Both the position numbers and the translations under genes were made by a program. From assembly GCA_905235605.1 (NCBI GenBank), contig CAJOMF010000014.1, forward strand, positions 4,662 to 68,661: a stretch of DNA of 64,000 bases, written 5' to 3'. Positions 3,493 through 63,054 of this stretch are shown one piece after another. This DNA comes from an uncultured bacterium (GTDB lineage Bacteria > UBP6 > UBA1177). Under the pieces are notes generated by a model. The model did no database searches, was not told the DNA's origin, and saw only the letters and a list, made by a program, of their open reading frames with translations. Every line of letters starts with the position of its first letter. The first letter of the stretch is position 1.

Positions 3493-5826
3493 TCAGAATG
3501 AGTTTTTAATATTGAATTCAAACTGGAATTTAGGATCTCCCGGTCTACGGGTGAGCGGGAATCCCCATTCGAACGAAAGCGGAGCCATCGGTGTTACCCA
3601 GCGCAGACCGAATCCGGCGCTCCACAAAACGCCGAGCGGAAGGTCGTAGATGTCCTTGTCTTTCGAATTGATGTAGAAAAGATGCTCGTCTTTTGCCCAC
3701 GAGTTGCCGAGATCAACAAAACCGACGATGCTGATTCTCATCGATTTGACGACCGGAATTTCAAGCTCGTTGTTCATTATGAACTGCTTGTCGCCGCCGA
3801 TGATGTAGGGATAAGTCGAACTCGTCGGGTCTTTTCCGTCTGACGGGATGTTGTAGTCGGTGTCGCTGCGGTCGTGGTTGGGACCGATCGAATAGAACGG
3901 ATATCCTCGGACGCTGTACATTCCGCCGAGTTTGAATCTTTCGGCATAAGGCAGCGGCTTGTTCTGAAGGTGGATATTGTAACCGAGTTCGATATTTGTC
4001 CTGAAAACGACGCCAAGGAAAAGTTCCTGATACCATCTGAAGTTGAAGTCGAGGTTTAAAATATCCTCGTCACTTCCCATCCAGCGCGGGAAGTATTCGG
4101 CTCCGCCGATCACATAGATTCCTTTCGTCGCGTACATTCTGTCGTTTCTCATGTCGAGAGCGAGCCGCGCCGTGAGACCTGACGAGAAAATATCTCTGTA
4201 AAGATAGTTCATCTGGTGCTCTGTTGCGCCGTTGATATCAATTTTTTTCAGTTTGTAACCGACGTAAGCGCGCAGATACTTCGCGATCGGTATACCGAAC
4301 GTAACGCTGAAACCGAAGCTGTTCTGACTGTAGTCGGCGTAGTATTCGTAAATGTCCGAATCGTAGTTCAAATATCTGTAGTAAAACGAAAGATTGAATG
4401 AAACATTTGAATCGACGAACCACGGCTCATAGAAACTGAGACTTATTTCACGCCTCATTCTGCTGAGCTGGCCTGCGAGGCTGAGGCTCTGACCGTAGCC
4501 CAGGAAGTTGTTCTGCTCGACTTTTGCGTTGAAAAGGAAGCTCTCGAACGACGAGAAACCTGCGCCGACATTGAAAGTTCCGCTTTTGCGCTCTTTGACC
4601 GTGACGACCATCCTCGCCATGTTCGGAGAGGAACCTTTGACGACTTCGATCTTGACTTCATCGTAGAATCCGGTCCTTTTCAGGTTGAACTCGCTCTCTT
4701 TCTGCTGTGAATAGTTGAAAAGGTCGCCCTCGGAAATCTCCATTTCGCGGCGCATGACTTTGTCGCGCGTCCTGTCGTTGCCGGCAAAGGAAACCTCTTC
4801 AATAAAGCATTTCTCCCCTTTTCTGACGATAAAATTCATGTCTACAGTCTGTTTTTTGTCGTCAAGATGTCTGCCGGGAAGTATTTCAACAAAAGGATAG
4901 CCTTCGTTGCCGTAGATTTTCTTGAGATTTTCAAAATCACGTATTGTTTTTGAGTGCTGATACCACTCTCCCGGCTTTTGCGTGAACTTCATGTCAGGCA
5001 GTTTGCCGCTGTCGAGAGGATCGCCTTCGACCTCGTATTTGCCGACTTTGTAGCGTTTTCCTTCTTCAACGATGTATGAAATGTAGATGTCGCGCTTGTC
5101 TTTTGAAATCATGACAGTCGGTTTGGAAACTTTGACATCGACGAAACCGTTTTCGTTGTAAAGATAGGTTATCGCACCCATGCTCTCTTCGAGCGCGCTT
5201 TTCTTGTAGCCGCCGTCGCTGAAAATCGAGAAAAGCCCGTCCTCCTGAACGGACATGTACTTTTTGAGCTCGGCTTCTTCAAGGTATTTGTTTCCGACGA
5301 TCGTCACTTTTTTGACCCGGCTTTTTTTGCCTTCCGAAATCTTGAAGTCGATGTTGACCTCCTGCTTCTCCTTGTTTATCGCGACATCGGCATCAACTGT
5401 AGCCGAAAGGTATCCTTTGTCGTGGTAAAGACCTAGGATCGCTGAGGTATTTTTGGAAATTTTGTTCATGTCGAGAAGTTCGTTTTTCTTGACAGTGAGG
5501 ACTTCCTTGATGTCGTCGTTGTCGATTTTCTTGTTACCCGAGAATTTGACCGAGCGGATTATCGGAAACTCGACTACTTTGAATTTAAGAAGATTTTTCG
5601 CGTCATCGTAGTAGATCGAAACATCTTCAAAGATCTCGATCGCTATGATTTTTTCAAGGATCTCGTTGATTTCTTTCTCGCTGTAGTCGCGCTTTTCCTT
5701 GAAATACTGCGTCAGGATCGACTGCTCGGTCCTGATCGTCCCTTCGACTGCCACGTCATCGACCTGCAGAGAAAAAAGCGGCAGAAAAAGAAGAAATACA
5801 GCGAAAAAAGCAAAAAATTTATTCAT
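3493..5826 (-). CDS. bamA: Outer membrane protein assembly factor BamA (Omp85 family)
   Basis: 777 aa with signal peptide, POTRA-like repeats and a C-terminal beta-barrel ending in an aromatic residue (…FNIKNSF). Size and architecture fit BamA. Confidence 0.8.
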   Translation of the reverse strand: MNKFFAFFAVFLLFLPLFSLQVDDVAVEGTIRTEQSILTQYFKEKRDYSEKEINEILEKIIAIEIFEDVSIYYDDAKNLLKFKVVEFPIIRSVKFSGNKKIDNDDIKEVLTVKKNELLDMNKISKNTSAILGLYHDKGYLSATVDADVAINKEKQEVNIDFKISEGKKSRVKKVTIVGNKYLEEAELKKYMSVQEDGLFSIFSDGGYKKSALEESMGAITYLYNENGFVDVKVSKPTVMISKDKRDIYISYIVEEGKRYKVGKYEVEGDPLDSGKLPDMKFTQKPGEWYQHSKTIRDFENLKKIYGNEGYPFVEILPGRHLDDKKQTVDMNFIVRKGEKCFIEEVSFAGNDRTRDKVMRREMEISEGDLFNYSQQKESEFNLKRTGFYDEVKIEVVKGSSPNMARMVVTVKERKSGTFNVGAGFSSFESFLFNAKVEQNNFLGYGQSLSLAGQLSRMRREISLSFYEPWFVDSNVSFNLSFYYRYLNYDSDIYEYYADYSQNSFGFSVTFGIPIAKYLRAYVGYKLKKIDINGATEHQMNYLYRDIFSSGLTARLALDMRNDRMYATKGIYVIGGAEYFPRWMGSDEDILNLDFNFRWYQELFLGVVFRTNIELGYNIHLQNKPLPYAERFKLGGMYSVRGYPFYSIGPNHDRSDTDYNIPSDGKDPTSSTYPYIIGGDKQFIMNNELEIPVVKSMRISIVGFVDLGNSWAKDEHLFYINSKDKDIYDLPLGVLWSAGFGLRWVTPMAPLSFEWGFPLTRRPGDPKFQFEFNIKNSF

Positions 5827-35763: not shown

Positions 35764-36783
35764 CTAGTCCAGTATTTCCCAATGACCGTTTTTGTCGGCA
35801 CCGATACGCTTTATGAGACCTTTTTCTTTCAAAGACGAAAAAATTCTTTCCGCCTGTCTCTGGCTGATGTTCAGACGAAGTGCAGCCGTTTTTGCCGATA
35901 TTTCAGGATTTTCTTTAATAAAATCAAGAATTTTAATTTCGCTCGCGCTGACATTTACACCGACATTTGCACCGACATTTGCACCGACATCTGATGTCGT
36001 TCTGTCGGCAAACCGGTGCCTTTTTATGGCATTGGCAATCATTTTCAGCATAAATTCTACAAAAACTCCCGAATCGGCATCATCGGTGCTCTGTTCGATC
36101 GCTTTGTAGTATCCTGCCTGATTTTCCCAGATCATGTTTTCAATGGGCAGGTGTGCGAAAACGGGATTCCACTCCGAGAGAAGTCTCGACTGCCAGAATC
36201 TTCCCATCCTGCCGTTGCCGTCTTCAAACGGATGGATGAACTCGAATTCGTAGTGAAAAACGCTGCTTTTGATGAGTATGTGGTCTTCAGCATTTTTCAG
36301 CCACTCGAAAAGATCGGATATGAGCCCTGAAACCATGTGTGCCGGAGGAGCGACATGCGAAATCCCGCTTCTGCCCATCACGCCGACTCCTCCGCGCCTG
36401 AAATGTCCGGGATTGTCTACTAAGCCCAAAGCCATGATCCCGTGCGCCTTGAGCAGGTCTTTAACGCTGAAAGGATCGAGATTCGGGAACTCTTCGTAAG
36501 CAAGGATCGCGTTTCTTACTTCCTGGATTTCTTTTATCGGCGCGATCACGTGTTTACCTTCGATCAGAGCTGTGACCTGCTCTTCAGAAAGTGAGTTCCC
36601 TTCGATTGCAAGAGAGCCGCGGATTGTTTTCATGCGGTTCACTTTGCGGAGCATGGGCCCGTCAGCCTGTTCGAGACGGATCGCAAAACGCTCAAGCAGA
36701 GCCGAGATTTCCGCCACCAGATTGACTGTTTCAGCCGTTATCGTAAAGGGCGGAGTGTGGATTTTTTTCTTTTTCTCGACCAT
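35764..36783 (-). CDS. fic: Fic-family protein (class II, auto-inhibited AMPylase type) with C-terminal winged HTH
   Basis: Canonical Fic motif HPFEDGNGRMGR. N-terminal inhibitory helix motif SLAIEGN (S/TxxxEG/N). C-terminal wHTH (…LRLNISQRQAERIFSSLKEKGLIKR). Confidence 0.8.
   Translation of the reverse strand: MVEKKKKIHTPPFTITAETVNLVAEISALLERFAIRLEQADGPMLRKVNRMKTIRGSLAIEGNSLSEEQVTALIEGKHVIAPIKEIQEVRNAILAYEEFPNLDPFSVKDLLKAHGIMALGLVDNPGHFRRGGVGVMGRSGISHVAPPAHMVSGLISDLFEWLKNAEDHILIKSSVFHYEFEFIHPFEDGNGRMGRFWQSRLLSEWNPVFAHLPIENMIWENQAGYYKAIEQSTDDADSGVFVEFMLKMIANAIKRHRFADRTTSDVGANVGANVGVNVSASEIKILDFIKENPEISAKTAALRLNISQRQAERIFSSLKEKGLIKRIGADKNGHWEILD
35951..35997. repeat. 12-bp tandem repeat (about 3.5 copies) inside the Fic coding region
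   Basis: acatttacaccg acatttgcaccg acatttgcaccg acatctg, encoding (VGAN)n in the Fic protein. Confidence 0.6.
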
Positions 36784-38156: not shown

Positions 38157-38268
38157 CTTTTTCTCCGCAAAAAGTCCTTAAAAAAACCGCGGCATTTTAG
38201 CAGAAATTATTTTTTTTGAAAGTTATAAGCGCTTGAAAATACGATTTTTATGAAAAGTTTTGAGCAGG

Positions 38269-39627
38269 TTACAGCACTGCCGCCATATAATACGGCAGGT
38301 AAATCACTTCGTTATCACGTTTTACATCACCGTCATACAGGACATACTGCAAGCCGACTTTGTTGGAAAACTTTGTTTTGAAATTCTGGAGTGATTTCAC
38401 TGCAAACTCTCTGCCTGATTTTACCTCGACCGGAACAACTTTTTTTTCGTTTCTGATCAGAAAATCGATTTCCATCACGGGTTTGCCCTTATTGTTGTAT
38501 TCAACATAAAAGAGGATTTTATGCCCGTTGCTGCGAAGGCACTGCGCGACCGCGTTTTCCACAAACATTCCCTCGTTTATATGCAGTTTGTCAGTGAGGA
38601 TTGTCTTATAAAACCCGTTATCCATAAATGTTCCGTCGCCGAAACTGAGGTTTATAAGCAAACCGGTATCAAGCAGGTAGCACTTGAAACGCCCGTTATC
38701 CATATTGAGGGTGAGAGCAGGGCTCGGATCGGTGACATTTCTCGCAACATTTACGATCATTGCTTCAGAAAGCCACGTGAGAGGGCTGCTGTATTCGCGG
38801 TATCTGGCGTTTTTATCCACATGAGAGAGCTGAAACGAACTGCTTTTTTCGTGTTTTGAGAGCTCGGAAGGAATATTATCCAGGATATTTCCCAAATAGG
38901 TGCTGTTTTCCTCTTTTTGATTCTTGATGTCGTTTCTGTAAAGAGCCAGAATTTCTTTCTTTGCAAAATCGACTTTTTCAAAATCTTTCGTCTGAATGTA
39001 TTTTACAACGGCCTGCGGCATTCCGCCGACACACATATATTCCCTGAATTTTCTGAAAATGTCTTTGTGAAGATTCCCGAGCGGTTTAATGTTTTCATAA
39101 CTGCTTTTTATGATAGGAAAAGTGAATTCGTCGCCCGCTGCCTGGAGAAATTCTTCAAAATCAAGCGGAAACATTTCAACGGCATATTCTTCAGAAGGAA
39201 TAAGGATTTCCGAACTCTCGGTCTTCTTTTTTATGCCAGCCAGTGATCCTGTTTCGATATAGTCGTATCTTCCGTCAGCCAACAGGGTTTTCAGAGCCTG
39301 GCGCGCCAGAGGGTAAAGCTGTATTTCATCTAAAATAATGAGCGAATCCCGCTTATAAAGCTTTTTCCCGTATTGCAGCTGAATTACGTTGAAAAAGTAA
39401 TCTAAGTCCAGAAGACTGTTCACGAAAAGGTCTCGGACAGTGTCGTTAGTTGATTGGAAGTTTATAGTTATGAAAGACTTATATTCGTTTTTCCCGAGTT
39501 CTTCCGCAATGGTTGTCTTTCCGACACGGCGTGCGCCTTTCAAAAATAAAGCATATTCCGGCGCATATTCTTTCTTCCATTTGAGTAATTCTTCATAAAC
39601 CTTTCTTTTCAGTACGATTTCTGCCAT
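38269..39627 (-). CDS. AAA_14 + DUF4143 family ATPase
   Basis: Walker A GARRVGKTT. About 450 aa, an architecture typical of DUF4143 ATPases. Start MAEIVLK (ATG 39627) after AGAGG. Confidence 0.65.
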   Translation of the reverse strand: MAEIVLKRKVYEELLKWKKEYAPEYALFLKGARRVGKTTIAEELGKNEYKSFITINFQSTNDTVRDLFVNSLLDLDYFFNVIQLQYGKKLYKRDSLIILDEIQLYPLARQALKTLLADGRYDYIETGSLAGIKKKTESSEILIPSEEYAVEMFPLDFEEFLQAAGDEFTFPIIKSSYENIKPLGNLHKDIFRKFREYMCVGGMPQAVVKYIQTKDFEKVDFAKKEILALYRNDIKNQKEENSTYLGNILDNIPSELSKHEKSSSFQLSHVDKNARYREYSSPLTWLSEAMIVNVARNVTDPSPALTLNMDNGRFKCYLLDTGLLINLSFGDGTFMDNGFYKTILTDKLHINEGMFVENAVAQCLRSNGHKILFYVEYNNKGKPVMEIDFLIRNEKKVVPVEVKSGREFAVKSLQNFKTKFSNKVGLQYVLYDGDVKRDNEVIYLPYYMAAVL

Positions 39628-39642
39628 TTGAGAACCTCTTTT

Positions 39643-39728
39643 CCACAAAATCTCCAATTTAAACCATGAAGATTTTCACAAAATCTCCAAATTTGTAATT
39701 GCCAGATATCACAAAATCTCTAATTTTT
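39643..39728. repeat. Three direct repeats CACAAAATCTC(C/T)AAtTT at about 33-bp spacing in the divergent promoter region upstream of the DUF4143 ATPase
   Basis: Copies at 39643-39660, 39676-39694 and 39709-39728. The proximal copy is 16 nt from the ATG. Confidence 0.55.
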
Positions 39729-39877
39729 CAATTTTTTAATGTAGATTTGTGATCTCTGCACACATCCTGAACATTTTCTGCCGCGCGGTTTCGTGATCCA
39801 AGCGCGTTCCGATTTTTCTTGATTTAAAATGCTTCAAAAGCATAATTAGGCGTTTTGTTGATGTTTAAAGGTGTGAT

Positions 39878-40822
39878 TTGGCTGAAAATTTCAAAAATAT
39901 TCTTGTTTTCGACGCTTCTTCTTCGAACATTTTTTTCGGCGGTGCTGACGGAAAGGGATCTGTTTTCCGGGCTGGGAATTTTGAAAAATCGAAGCTCAGC
40001 CGCTATCTTCCGGAAGAGTTCGGTAAAACTGTCGGAAACCTTGATCTGACGGAGCTTCCGCGGGTGATCATCGGCAACGGGCCGGGCGCTTTCACCGGAA
40101 TAAAAACGGGTACGGCGTTTTTTCTGGCGTATATCTATTCGCTCGGTGTCAAAACGGTCGAAACGGTAAGTTCGTTCTCGTTCATTTCGGCTCTTTCCGG
40201 GCCGTGCGCAGAAGATGCGAGGATCGTTCTCATTCCTTTCAACAAAGGGGAATATTTCGCGGCCGTTCTGGATAAAAACAACAAAATCCTGCGCGGCGAC
40301 ATCTTCATAAAGCCGCCTTACGAAAATATATCTTCTTTTTTTGCAGGTTTTGTAGGAAAGACAGCCGGCATCGTCGCTCCTATAGAGTGCGGAAGCGAAA
40401 TGATCCCTGAGCTTGAGAAGATTTTTTCAGTCAAAAATGTGCGTTTTGACGGTTTTTCTTTCGACAGAGGCCGCTTTGAGGCGCTGCCCGATACGAAAAT
40501 AGTTGATATCACTGCGGAACCTTACATCGTTAACCATGTGATTTTACCGGCGAATCTTGACAGTAACGGCAATTTTTATGTTGAAGTCAAACTTCAGGAG
40601 GCAAAAATGAGCCAGGATAATTTTTCGCGTGAAGAAATTCTTGCAAAGTTGGCACAGCTTAAAGAAGAACATGCGAAACTGAACGAAAAATCAGGTGAAC
40701 TCTCGTCGAAAAAGGTCTTTACTCCTGCTGACGAGGCTGAACTCAACATTGTCAGGAAGCAGAAACTCCGCGCGAAAGATATGATAGCCTACTTTGAAAA
40801 TCTTCTGAAAACCATGGAATAA
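39878..40822 (+). CDS. tsaB: tRNA threonylcarbamoyladenosine biosynthesis protein TsaB (YeaZ)-like with C-terminal coiled-coil extension
   Basis: N-terminal inactive-Kae1 pattern ILVFDASS…GNGPGAFTGIKTGTAFFLAY. Only in-frame start is a TTG at 39878. C-terminal roughly 100 aa are Lys/Glu-rich and helical. Confidence 0.55.
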   Translation: MAENFKNILVFDASSSNIFFGGADGKGSVFRAGNFEKSKLSRYLPEEFGKTVGNLDLTELPRVIIGNGPGAFTGIKTGTAFFLAYIYSLGVKTVETVSSFSFISALSGPCAEDARIVLIPFNKGEYFAAVLDKNNKILRGDIFIKPPYENISSFFAGFVGKTAGIVAPIECGSEMIPELEKIFSVKNVRFDGFSFDRGRFEALPDTKIVDITAEPYIVNHVILPANLDSNGNFYVEVKLQEAKMSQDNFSREEILAKLAQLKEEHAKLNEKSGELSSKKVFTPADEAELNIVRKQKLRAKDMIAYFENLLKTME

Positions 40823-61565: not shown

Positions 61566-62918
61566 CTACTTTTTAGACGCGATTTTTGTCTCAAAAATCC
61601 ATTTTTTCAGCAAAAAGGCACAGAAATGAGGGAAGGTGTAGAATTTTCCGTTGAATCCGATGTTTCCGCCGCAGAATTTTATGCCGTATTTTATGTCGTG
61701 ATACTTTTCTTTTTCAATGAGTTTGTTGAGCGAAGCGGTCGCGCTGTCCTGCGCTTTGACTTCGACCGGAACAAGGGAATCGGCATCGCGCACGAAGAAA
61801 TCCATCTCGACAGTCGATTTTTCGTCTTTGTAGTAAAAAAGTTCGTATCCCTGCTTTACGAGCATGTCGCCGATGACATTTTCATAAACTGCACCTTTAT
61901 AGATATTGAAATTTTTGTTCCGGCGCAGATCCTCCTGGGCTTCCTCGTCAAGAGATGCGATCAAAAGCCCCGTGTCACGGAAATAAATTTTGAAATCGTT
62001 TGCCTTATAGTTGCCTTTCAGCGGCAGTTCCGGTGTTTCAAGACAGTGGCAGACATTGATTATTCCGGCATCTCGGAGCCATTCGACCGTTCCGGCATAC
62101 TCGCGGTTTCTTGCTCCCGTTGCGATTTTCGACACCTGATATTTTTTGTTCTCTTTTGCTAGAAAAACAGATATGTTGTCGTAAACATTGGTGATTTTTC
62201 CTTTGTCAAGACCTGCTGCATATTTTGTTATATCCTCTTTGTAGGCGGCAAGTATCTGCCTTTGCGCATCTAAAGTTCCCGAAAAGTTTTTCTGCTCCGC
62301 AAACATCCTGACAACCGCCGGCATACCTCCGAGAGTCATATATTCAGTAAAGTTTTCCTGCCACACCGCGTATTCGTTCTGATTGAAAGGCTCAATATTT
62401 TTCATGTGTTGGAAAATCGTTGCAATCTGATCTTTTCCGAAGCCTTTCGCCCAAAGAAATTCCTCGAAATCGAGAGAATGCATCTCTAAATCCTTTTTGT
62501 AGCCGACACTGACGGAAGTCACTTCATTGTAGTTTATTCCGAGCATTGATCCCGAGCAGATCACGTCATAACGCCCGTCGATCTTAAAGAATTTCAGACA
62601 TGTCGCACAGTCTGGGCAGGCCTGCATCTCGTCGAAAAAAATCAAAGTCTCTTTCGGAACGAATTTGAAAGAAGGGTTAATGAAGCTTATCTCCTTTATG
62701 ACCGAATCGGGCGAATAGCCGCCCGCAAAAATATTTTTGTACTTCGGCTCCTCGATAAAATTTATCTCGACAAAGTATTTATAAGTTTCGGCAAAACGTC
62801 TGATCGAGAAAGTTTTTCCTACCTGACGCGCTCCCTTTACAATAAGCGGAAGCCTTTCCGGATTCTTTTTCCACTCAAGAAGAAAATCATCAATTTTTCT
62901 ATGAAGTATTTCGGGCAT
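61566..62918 (-). CDS. AAA_14 + DUF4143 family ATPase (second copy)
   Basis: Walker A GARQVGKTF. Same architecture and length class as the 38269-39627 gene. Confidence 0.65.
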   Translation of the reverse strand: MPEILHRKIDDFLLEWKKNPERLPLIVKGARQVGKTFSIRRFAETYKYFVEINFIEEPKYKNIFAGGYSPDSVIKEISFINPSFKFVPKETLIFFDEMQACPDCATCLKFFKIDGRYDVICSGSMLGINYNEVTSVSVGYKKDLEMHSLDFEEFLWAKGFGKDQIATIFQHMKNIEPFNQNEYAVWQENFTEYMTLGGMPAVVRMFAEQKNFSGTLDAQRQILAAYKEDITKYAAGLDKGKITNVYDNISVFLAKENKKYQVSKIATGARNREYAGTVEWLRDAGIINVCHCLETPELPLKGNYKANDFKIYFRDTGLLIASLDEEAQEDLRRNKNFNIYKGAVYENVIGDMLVKQGYELFYYKDEKSTVEMDFFVRDADSLVPVEVKAQDSATASLNKLIEKEKYHDIKYGIKFCGGNIGFNGKFYTFPHFCAFLLKKWIFETKIASKK

Positions 62919-62930
62919 TTATGCAACTCC

Positions 62931-63054
62931 ATCACAAAATTCCGGTGTATTTTGCCACAATTTTTCACAAAATTCCAGTTGTTTTTTGCTGTTTTTTCAC
63001 AAAATTCCGGATGTTTCAGTGATATTTTTCACAAAAATCTGATTTTAGGACTGT
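62931..63054. repeat. Four direct repeats TCACAAAATTCC(G/A)G at about 33-bp spacing upstream of the second DUF4143 ATPase
   Basis: Copies at 62931, 62963, 62997 and 63038. The proximal copy is about 15 nt from the ATG, mirroring the 39643-39728 arrangement. Confidence 0.55.

Follow-up and report, generated by a model that had tools for sequence, protein, structure and literature searches.

In archaea, the gene of the AAA+ protein Orc1/Cdc6, which carries a lid and a winged helix, stands beside several polar boxes of ~13–30 bp (ORB and mini-ORB), and it is established there that one monomer binds each asymmetric box through bipartite contacts. Plasmid iterons (as in pPS10, F, and R6K; 3.5 × 22-bp repeats in a Rep_3 case) are phased direct repeats located directly upstream of the rep gene; their copy number is variable, and Rep as a rule regulates its own gene. 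Here we describe an array of similar layout in an uncultured bacterium of the lineage UBP6/UBA1177, which consists of three box-containing 33-bp units and lies directly upstream of a gene for a 452-amino-acid (aa) ATPase with AAA_14 and DUF4143 domains (38269–39627, − strand). Coordinates are those of the window, the whole 64,000-nucleotide stretch that was analyzed (GenBank assembly GCA_905235605.1, contig CAJOMF010000014.1, positions 4,662–68,661 of the forward strand).

The ATPase belongs to PDC-S01 (AAA_14 + DUF4143, COG1373), which is reported to rank fourth in frequency among the defense candidates of prokaryotes and to be, in rumen genomes, the single locus met most often (PMC12988326, PMC13356809); the family is classed as a candidate defense system pending validation (PMC12988326). 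The literature found on PDC-S01 consists of surveys that count the family, call it unvalidated, and leave upstream repeats unmentioned, and no description of the arrays was found in the literature searched on this protein family, the box sequence, or 33-bp repeats. As a phased, operator- or iteron-like element, the array marks the family of this abundant, uncharacterized candidate defense gene as a whole; it is undescribed in that literature and may serve as an operator for the protein encoded by the gene.

Phased Boxes Upstream of DUF4143 ATPase Genes

The sequence CACAAAATCTCCAA occurs exactly at 39644–39657 and 39677–39690 on the + strand, and a copy with one mismatch, CACAAAATCTCTAA, occurs at 39710–39723. 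As an earlier sequence-only reading of this region had proposed from a period of about 33 bp, the three iterated boxes are real, and their start-to-start spacing is exactly 33 and 33 bp. On the gene strand, the proximal box 3 (39644–39657) and box 2 (39677–39690) both match TTGGAGATTTTGTG exactly, and the distal box 1 (39710–39723) reads TTAGAGATTTTGTG, with one mismatch. No further site matching CACAAAATCTCCAA with 0–1 mismatches is present in the 64-kb window. Because the chance expectation for an exact 14-mer is ~0.0005 in 128 kb of two-strand sequence (by simple arithmetic), the three phased copies are not due to chance.

The true start of the gene is the ATG at 39627; the listed TTG start at 39657 falls inside box 3. 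The Shine–Dalgarno (SD) sequence AAGAGG is located at 39635–39640 (− strand; GAGG at 39635–39638), a position conserved in orthologs. Box 3 lies within the predicted 5′ untranslated region (UTR) and ends 5 nt before the SD sequence and 16 nt before the ATG, in agreement with the remark of the sequence-only reading that the proximal box nearly abuts the ribosome-binding site. The whole array with the leader and the SD sequence (39628–39737, − strand) forms the 5′ part of a transferable unit, as described below. The consensus of the 33-bp unit is TTGAAAAnnt-GGAGATTTTGTG-AtAw followed by ~7 variable nt. The array is not reported by Tandem Repeats Finder, because only ~19–25 of the 33 positions are conserved between units. 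The sequence AAAATCTTC, which follows box 2, is an imperfect inverted copy of the box. A similar imperfect inverted copy in which one T is missing, GTAGATTTGTGATCTC (39742–39757, + strand), lies just beyond the unit boundary, 18 nt past box 1, and may be a remnant of an earlier array in the opposite orientation.

Arrays of this kind sit before nearly every relative examined. We sampled 59 homologous loci (26–95% aa identity) from Spirochaetota, Bacillota, archaeal metagenome-assembled genomes (MAGs), and viral contigs; they have 2–8 boxes directly upstream of the gene, mostly with a period of 33 bp and in a few loci of 32 or 34 bp. When periods of 12–60 bp were scanned, 33 bp was the best period in 42 of the 59 loci and in 13 of 998 control segments, and the period-33 signal exceeded the 99th percentile of the controls in 52 of the 59. 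In the clade of the window gene (~20 loci), 3–8 copies of GGAGATTTTGTG are spaced 33 bp apart (occasionally 32) and end 12–34 nt before the start codon. The sequence-only reading had suggested a motif search upstream of other DUF4143 genes and had named the absence of the boxes from orthologous promoters as grounds for rejection; the opposite is clearly the case, as the GGAGATTTTGTG core recurs at 33 bp before ~20 orthologs from different phyla (Treponema, Spirochaetales, Lachnospiraceae, and unclassified MAGs), and more distant homologs have their own arrays of 32–34 bp. Homologs are also found on 25 IMG/VR contigs classed as viral (L072–L096, where L numbers denote individual loci), and an array signal of 32–34 bp was detected in 14 of the 15 examined (weak in L089 and lacking in L092). 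The phased array is a feature of the whole sampled family.

Across ~70 units, core positions are 83–100% conserved and spacers ~25–45%, near background. Chance or recent duplication as the origin of the array is ruled out by the motif statistics together with these conserved cores and diverged spacers. A coding repeat (33 bp corresponding to 11 codons) and a series of mini open reading frames (ORFs) with SD and GTG were also considered and rejected, since in-frame stops occur within 1–2 units and GGAG is absent from other clades.

Box sequence is nearly constant inside each array and changes from one protein clade to another (for example, GGAGATTTTGTG, GCGATTTCGTG, CGGGTTTTTGTG, TGTCGGAATTGTG, GGCGCATTTGTG, and AAACTCGCTTGAAAAAGTGC). 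It reads GCGATTTCGTGATA in L017, TGATTTCGTGATAAA in L018, CGGGTTTTTGTGA in L023, TGTTATTTTGTGA in L024 and L027, (C)GTAGTTTTGTGA in L022 and L026, TGTCGGAATTGTGAAA in L035, L036, and L039, GGCGCATTTGTGAAA in L040 and L041, and TTGAAATAATGTAAC in L042; the loci of a 31%-identity clade (L044–L053) share AAACTCGCTTGAAAAAGTGC, and the box is GATTCGCTTGAAAAAATGT in L083–L088, CATTTTCCATTTTCCGACAAA in L076–L082, GGAAAAATGTGTTAAAT in L094, and CCCTTGATTTGGTGTAT in L075, where the period is 34 bp. Variants appear in concert, with GGCGATTTTGTG in all four boxes of L034 and GATGATTTTGTG in all three of L016. In each clade, 6–12 clade-specific spacer nucleotides are 94–100% conserved, and these are replaced wholesale between clades. 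The same box is retained in Spirochaetota and Bacillota hosts, and two loci of a single MAG, UBA3632 (L013 and L052), have different boxes. In L010, L057, and L058, boxes 1 and 3 nearly always end in TTTCGTG, box 1 of L058 being more diverged, and box 2, which forms a promoter spacer (see below), ends in TTTTGTG in L010 and L057 and in TTTCGTG in L058.

The box of the viral-contig loci L076–L082, CATTTTCC(A/G)NTT(T/C)CCGACAAA, resembles the reverse complement of the TGTCGGAATTGTGAAA-type box. Compared with the box of L039, it has 14 matches as the reverse complement (including the 10-mer TTGTCGGAAT) vs. 9 in direct orientation, which is suggestive only of a clade that carries the box flipped relative to the gene.

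The pattern is replicated within the window. A second AAA_14 + DUF4143 paralog (449 aa, 32% identical to the first; 61569–62918, − strand) is preceded by its own array of four CGGAATTTTGTGA boxes (62932–63041, − strand), located at 62932–62944, 62965–62977, 62997–63009, and 63029–63041 and thus spaced by 33, 32, and 32 bp. The two paralogs in this one genome have different boxes, GGAGATTTTGTG (39644–39723) vs. CGGAATTTTGTG (62932–63041). The sequence-only reading of the three boxes had overlooked this second array, as well as the extent of the feature across the family and the overlap of the boxes with the predicted promoter of the unit.

The Predicted Protein and Candidate Promoters

The 452-aa protein matches AAA_14 (E = 1.5e-22) and DUF4143 (E = 3.8e-21) and no other Pfam family, and it is recognized by the PADLOC PDC-S01 profiles PDLC04786 (E = 4.6e-102, residues 6–451) and PDLC04792 (E = 5.4e-97). 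It has the fusion of an ATPase domain to a PD-(D/E)xK domain by which PDC-S01 is defined. Glu386, Asp388, and the Glu401-x-Lys403 motif are invariant in 53 aligned sequences, and weak matches to YraN, Cas4, and NERD were detected. A sequence search of the PDB returned no solved homolog. An AlphaFold2 model built from the 53-sequence alignment has a predicted local distance difference test score (pLDDT) of 85 and a predicted template modeling score (pTM) of 0.87; in an earlier model from a shallow alignment, residues 226–354 were poor and the fold matches generic, and the deeper alignment mended both. The model predicts a nucleotide-binding domain (residues 1–165), a helical lid (169–236), a winged helix (~242–318), and the PD-(D/E)xK domain (352–445). 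Its Foldseek matches are AAA+/STAND proteins, with Cdc6 and the Orc1/Cdc6–DNA complex 2qby among the best and MalT (8bob) and DnaA domain III also present, and the predicted fold resembles Orc1/Cdc6 and STAND proteins. Winged-helix residues were considered as readers of the box and set aside, because this segment is almost the same in all box types and such differences as exist are confounded with phylogeny.

The promoters discussed here are consensus predictions. The best candidate for the ATPase gene is a weak sigma-70-like promoter at 39672–39699 (− strand), composed of ATTACA (39699–39694), a 16-nt spacer, and TG-n-GAAAAT (39677–39672). Box 2 fills this spacer, and its GTG together with the following AAAAT yields TGtGAAAAT, an extended −10-like element. 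Orthologs in the same register (L010, L012, and L017) have near-consensus promoters. The predicted promoter lies in the penultimate unit in L010, L012, L016, L017, and L031 (the box being the spacer and its GTG providing the TG of the extended −10, with one box downstream), in the last unit in L035, L039, L044, and L046–L048, and in the first unit in L029 and L041; it lies directly downstream of the array in L018, L020, L022–L024, and L089 (with the −35 element 7–13 nt after the last box) and just upstream of the array in L015. The boxes therefore overlap or abut the predicted promoter of the unit itself. Strong promoters beside operator arrays are the usual signature of repression.

A promoter located after the array or within its last unit, as predicted for several clades, would leave most or all boxes outside the mRNA. 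Because the boxes are probably not transcribed with the gene in these clades, and because the leader of the window gene has no significant RNA structure (fold z = −0.60) and no match in Rfam, the element appears to act on DNA, at or against the promoter, rather than as RNA. A known RNA family or a structured leader was rejected on the same two grounds.

A Single-Gene Unit and the Proposed Role of Its Array

The array and the gene together form a transferable unit of ~1.47 kb (38267–39737, − strand) that ends at the stop codon and recurs in unrelated contexts. A scan of one genome per species yielded 56 related loci, and in blastn comparisons with these the nucleotide homology is sharply limited, from ~39737 (39737–39740, the outer edge of the array) to ~38267, whereas the flanks are unrelated between loci; array and gene thus constitute a unit present in many contexts. 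A single gene travels with the array, and no second gene is conserved beside the unit. Proteins with 70–95% identity are found in Treponema, other Spirochaetales, Lachnospiraceae, Ruminococcus, Bacilli, and Erysipelotrichaceae MAGs, and relatives with 26–56% identity in Bacteroidota and in Methanomethylophilaceae and Methanomassiliicoccales MAGs. This distribution points to frequent horizontal transfer, and COG1373 has been listed among the genes often common to different gut genera (PMC10782964). The loci are chromosomal, on contigs of up to 670 kb and in varied contexts, with ClpA-like, TsaB-like, and phosphoglucosamine mutase-type genes among the neighbors. No cas domains were found in the five ORFs scanned around the gene, and neither terminal inverted repeats nor a recombinase were found at the unit ends.

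A transposon-like unit was considered and rejected, since terminal inverted repeats are absent, a box at the 3′ end is present only in L015, and the direct repeat flanking the unit in L029 is not general. L015 alone has box copies at either end of the gene: its final codons together with the stop (GGCGATTTTGTGA) look like a box, and a duplicated unit of the array and a further ATG come after them (4360–4410 of that locus). In L029, direct repeats of ~38 bp (aatctgcaca..ttgaccttatctgcataaaaaatcc; 2814–2851 and 4411–4447 of that locus) flank the array and gene; they sit in a patch of promoter-like repeats containing TCTGCA and could be a target duplication or a pre-existing repeat.

The array is subject to turnover. 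L062 (3717–4001), whose strain is 97% identical to the window, contains two exact copies of unit 2, such that the intergenic region is 33 bp longer and contains four boxes; the two strains display a copy-number polymorphism of the box. A protein-blind scan of metagenomes for two boxes 33 bp apart returned 31 loci, 18 of which have a full-length gene 19–57 nt downstream and three of which (L104, L105, and L111) have a partial homolog in the same position, cut at the contig end. The gene of L097 is truncated, with 25 codons before a stop. In L037 (2949–3011) and L112 (6118–6200), a deletion has joined the second box to codon ~221 (corresponding to 38960–38985 of the window), and the junction is a GATTTTG microhomology between the box (GAGATTTTGTG) and the gene (GATTTTGCAAAG). 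Orphan arrays with 2–4 GGAGATTTTGTG boxes and no ATPase gene after them are found in L099/L125, L100/L122, L106/L124/L127, and L103/L107. In L103 and L107, the last box is followed after 4 nt by the start of an ORF for a 91-aa secreted Cys-rich protein. Although specific to this gene family, the arrays persist after loss of the gene, and the region is prone to rearrangement.

We propose that the array is a 33-bp-phased, head-to-tail operator that is bound by the gene's own protein and results in autorepression, a reading to which we assign about an even chance of being correct. One protomer of the encoded protein would dock on each 33-bp unit, a site that is polar and non-palindromic. Protomers bound head-to-tail on successive units, and on one face of the DNA because the units are about three helical turns apart, would cooperate via AAA+/STAND interfaces. 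As the sigma-70 promoter of the unit is built into or abuts the array, occupancy would occlude it and thereby switch off a potentially toxic nuclease. All three components of this proposal, namely protein binding to the boxes, the ATPase as the binder, and repression as the outcome, are what we infer from sequence. The cooperative-repressor or iteron-like geometry put forward in the sequence-only reading stands with respect to a phased, iteron-like cis element tied to the DUF4143 ATPase, and its repressor binding is conjectural. An element that is phased, polar, promoter-linked, clade-specific, and orthogonal between paralogs, and that resides in a single-gene unit, points to a sequence-specific partner encoded by the unit, for which the ATPase–nuclease is the sole candidate. 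Self-binding is the most economical reading, because the array and the gene travel as a single-gene unit and the box tracks the protein clade.

Several points weigh against this proposal. The co-variation of box and protein clade is confounded by shared ancestry, since the two are physically linked, and the loci come mainly from gut and rumen MAGs, some of which are possibly mis-binned. In the alignment comparison, clades that differ in their boxes have almost the same winged-helix segment, and the winged helix of STAND proteins is usually regulatory rather than DNA-binding. The candidate promoter of the window gene is weak (score 9) and was missed by a stricter scan. Arrays located wholly upstream of the −35 element (L018–L024) would suit an activator too, and the invariant 3′ part of many boxes (TGTGAwAwT) can also be read as an extended −10 element, such that part of its conservation could reflect promoter function.

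The gene's own protein might instead bind the array for a mainly non-transcriptional role, in which the array is an assembly or loading platform (a filament of 33-bp pitch that stores, poises, or activates the nuclease) or a site for copying or moving the unit. We consider this doubtful. In its favor, the phasing stays within 32–34 bp although the placement of the array with respect to the promoter varies freely, the 5′ boundary of the transferable unit falls at the array's outer edge, the region of the array is recombinogenic (as in the unit gain of L062, the duplicated unit of L015, the box-junction deletions of L037 and L112, and the orphan arrays), and transfer is wide (70–95% identity across phyla; COG1373 shared between gut genera, PMC10782964). 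However, most loci have no box at the 3′ end, there are no terminal inverted repeats and no recombinase, decay of a costly gene would account for the orphan arrays and truncations just as well, and the overlap with predicted promoters is too regular to be incidental. A bolder version, which we judge quite unlikely, holds that the array is the DNA ligand of a self-contained module in which the STAND/Orc-like nuclease polymerizes with one protomer per 33 bp, and the filament sets an activation threshold and/or serves as the cis site for copying the 1.47-kb cassette. If the protein does polymerize on the array, this would be a new case in which phased DNA sites act as the template for an AAA+/STAND protein, and if the array is a copying site, the unit would be a new kind of single-gene mobile defense cassette without a recombinase.

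It is very unlikely that no specific factor is involved and that the units are portable tandem promoters, UP elements, or curved DNA that ensure expression in any host: each unit is promoter-like (TTGAAA, 17 nt, TG-n-TAtttt), the 3′ part that the boxes have in common (TGTGAwA) matches an extended −10, and the A/T tracts are phased, but RNA polymerase would not select the 6–12 clade-specific spacer nucleotides conserved at 94–100% within clades, promoters 33 bp apart would occlude each other, and most units have no usable −10. Operators for a host-encoded regulator would be the default view of operators whose partner is unassigned, and no obvious co-variation with box type is seen in the winged-helix segment; however, Spirochaetota and Bacillota hosts have the same box, a conservation across phyla that speaks against a host factor, one genome can hold different boxes, each beside its own paralog, and no second gene is conserved beside the unit, which leaves this alternative highly improbable. 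We give equally little credence to action of the repeats as RNA, whether as a ToxI-like antitoxin RNA both processed and bound by the nuclease or as protein-binding sites in the 5′ UTR that control translation. Tandem repeats of ~33 nt directly upstream of a defense-type gene do resemble toxI–toxN, the window clade probably has one or two boxes in the 5′ UTR with the last abutting the SD sequence, and the core can also be read as GGAG + 5 nt + GTG. Against this, the near-consensus promoters predicted in other clades lie within the last unit of the array or beyond its downstream end, those clades do not conserve GGAG, the unit is only partly conserved (unlike ToxI), one clade appears to carry the box inverted, the protein is not a ToxN/AbiQ RNase, and neither the fold statistic (z = −0.60) nor Rfam gives a signal.

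The region of the array had also been proposed to be the divergent promoter of the neighboring tsaB gene. This is not borne out: the best + strand promoter, TTGATT-16-CATAAT at 39819–39846, lies ~100 bp away and outside the unit, and strains that have the same neighbor but no ATPase keep the sequence only from 39788 onward. The neighbor itself (39878–40822, + strand) has a sub-threshold match to TsaB (TIGR03725, 40 bits vs. a cutoff of 69.3) in its N-terminal 144 aa and a C-terminal extension of ~170 aa that ends in a DUF465-like coiled-coil segment. In four loci with an identical TsaB-like protein (L060, L065, L068, and L069), genes for DUF3800, RelB, LRR_5, and GIY-YIG proteins replace the ATPase, phosphoglucomutase-family, and Fic genes, and the segment 39738–39787 is absent from the strains without the ATPase. 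A clean empty site was looked for and rejected, as strains with the same TsaB-like gene and no ATPase carry other genes there. The region next to the TsaB-like gene is a variable hotspot. Further along, the product of a gene at 35764–36783 (− strand) is a Fic/DOC protein that has a winged helix-turn-helix at its C terminus; together with a RhuM-family gene a few kb beyond, it gives the surroundings the flavor of a defense island.

An element of fixed 33-bp pitch that co-varies with the protein is the first concrete experimental handle on PDC-S01. The array provides a defined candidate DNA ligand for binding assays, footprinting, and cryo-electron microscopy, and the paralogs of one genome, which appear to use orthogonal boxes, offer a built-in test of specificity. 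As a simple genomic signature, the array could also improve the annotation of gene starts, pseudogenes, and orphan remnants.

Comparison With Known Systems

CRISPR arrays have repeats of at least 23 nt that alternate with unique spacers of similar length and are usually near cas genes. Here, by contrast, the conserved core is 12–20 nt within a 33-bp period, and there are 2–8 units that always abut the start of one gene family. The type III system ToxI–ToxN resembles the present locus in that a short tandem array (36 nt in ToxI) lies directly upstream of a single defense-type gene; however, the array described here appears to act at the DNA level, its units are partly conserved and, according to the predicted promoters, frequently left out of the gene's transcript, and the two proteins are not related.

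Among STAND NTPases (NB-ARC/MalT/Avs), the nucleotide-binding, helical, and winged-helix core predicted for the ATPase has a counterpart, whereas the large C-terminal sensor (repeat) domain does not; the PD-(D/E)xK domain follows directly after the winged helix in the 452-aa protein. MalT, a STAND ATPase whose structure (8bob) is among the fold matches, binds cooperatively to several non-palindromic direct-repeat boxes near promoters. It reads DNA by a LuxR-type helix-turn-helix, which is absent here, and activates other operons in response to a ligand, whereas the only target detected here is the gene itself and repression is likelier. DnaA, whose domain III is likewise among the fold matches, is an AAA+ protein that represses its own gene via clustered asymmetric boxes. 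In contrast to the ATPase, DnaA has a dedicated C-terminal helix-turn-helix, its 9-mer boxes have no fixed 33-bp pitch, and it serves an essential chromosomal function rather than belonging to a transferable cassette.

Plasmid iterons share with the array the features described at the outset, namely phased direct repeats directly upstream of the gene of the presumed binder and a variable copy number. They differ in period (~22 bp vs. 33 bp here) and in their protein, the ATPase not being of a Rep family; moreover, the present loci are chromosomal and in varied contexts, and no DnaA box or AT-rich region was identified at them. The archaeal Orc1/Cdc6 boxes are inverted around an AT-rich core, whereas the repeats here are direct and of fixed pitch, and the ATPase has a C-terminal PD-(D/E)xK nuclease domain, no replication context, and no obvious AT-rich duplex-unwinding element. 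No Cdc6/ORC match was found for the protein in Pfam or by PDB sequence search; the likeness lies in the modeled fold, for which Foldseek returned Cdc6 and the Sulfolobus solfataricus Orc1/Cdc6–origin DNA complex (2qby), and in the organization of the locus, with an AAA+ protein of lid and winged helix encoded beside several polar boxes. Binding of one monomer per asymmetric box with bipartite contacts, as established for Orc1/Cdc6, would fit the conserved block of 20–26 bp in the 33-bp unit.

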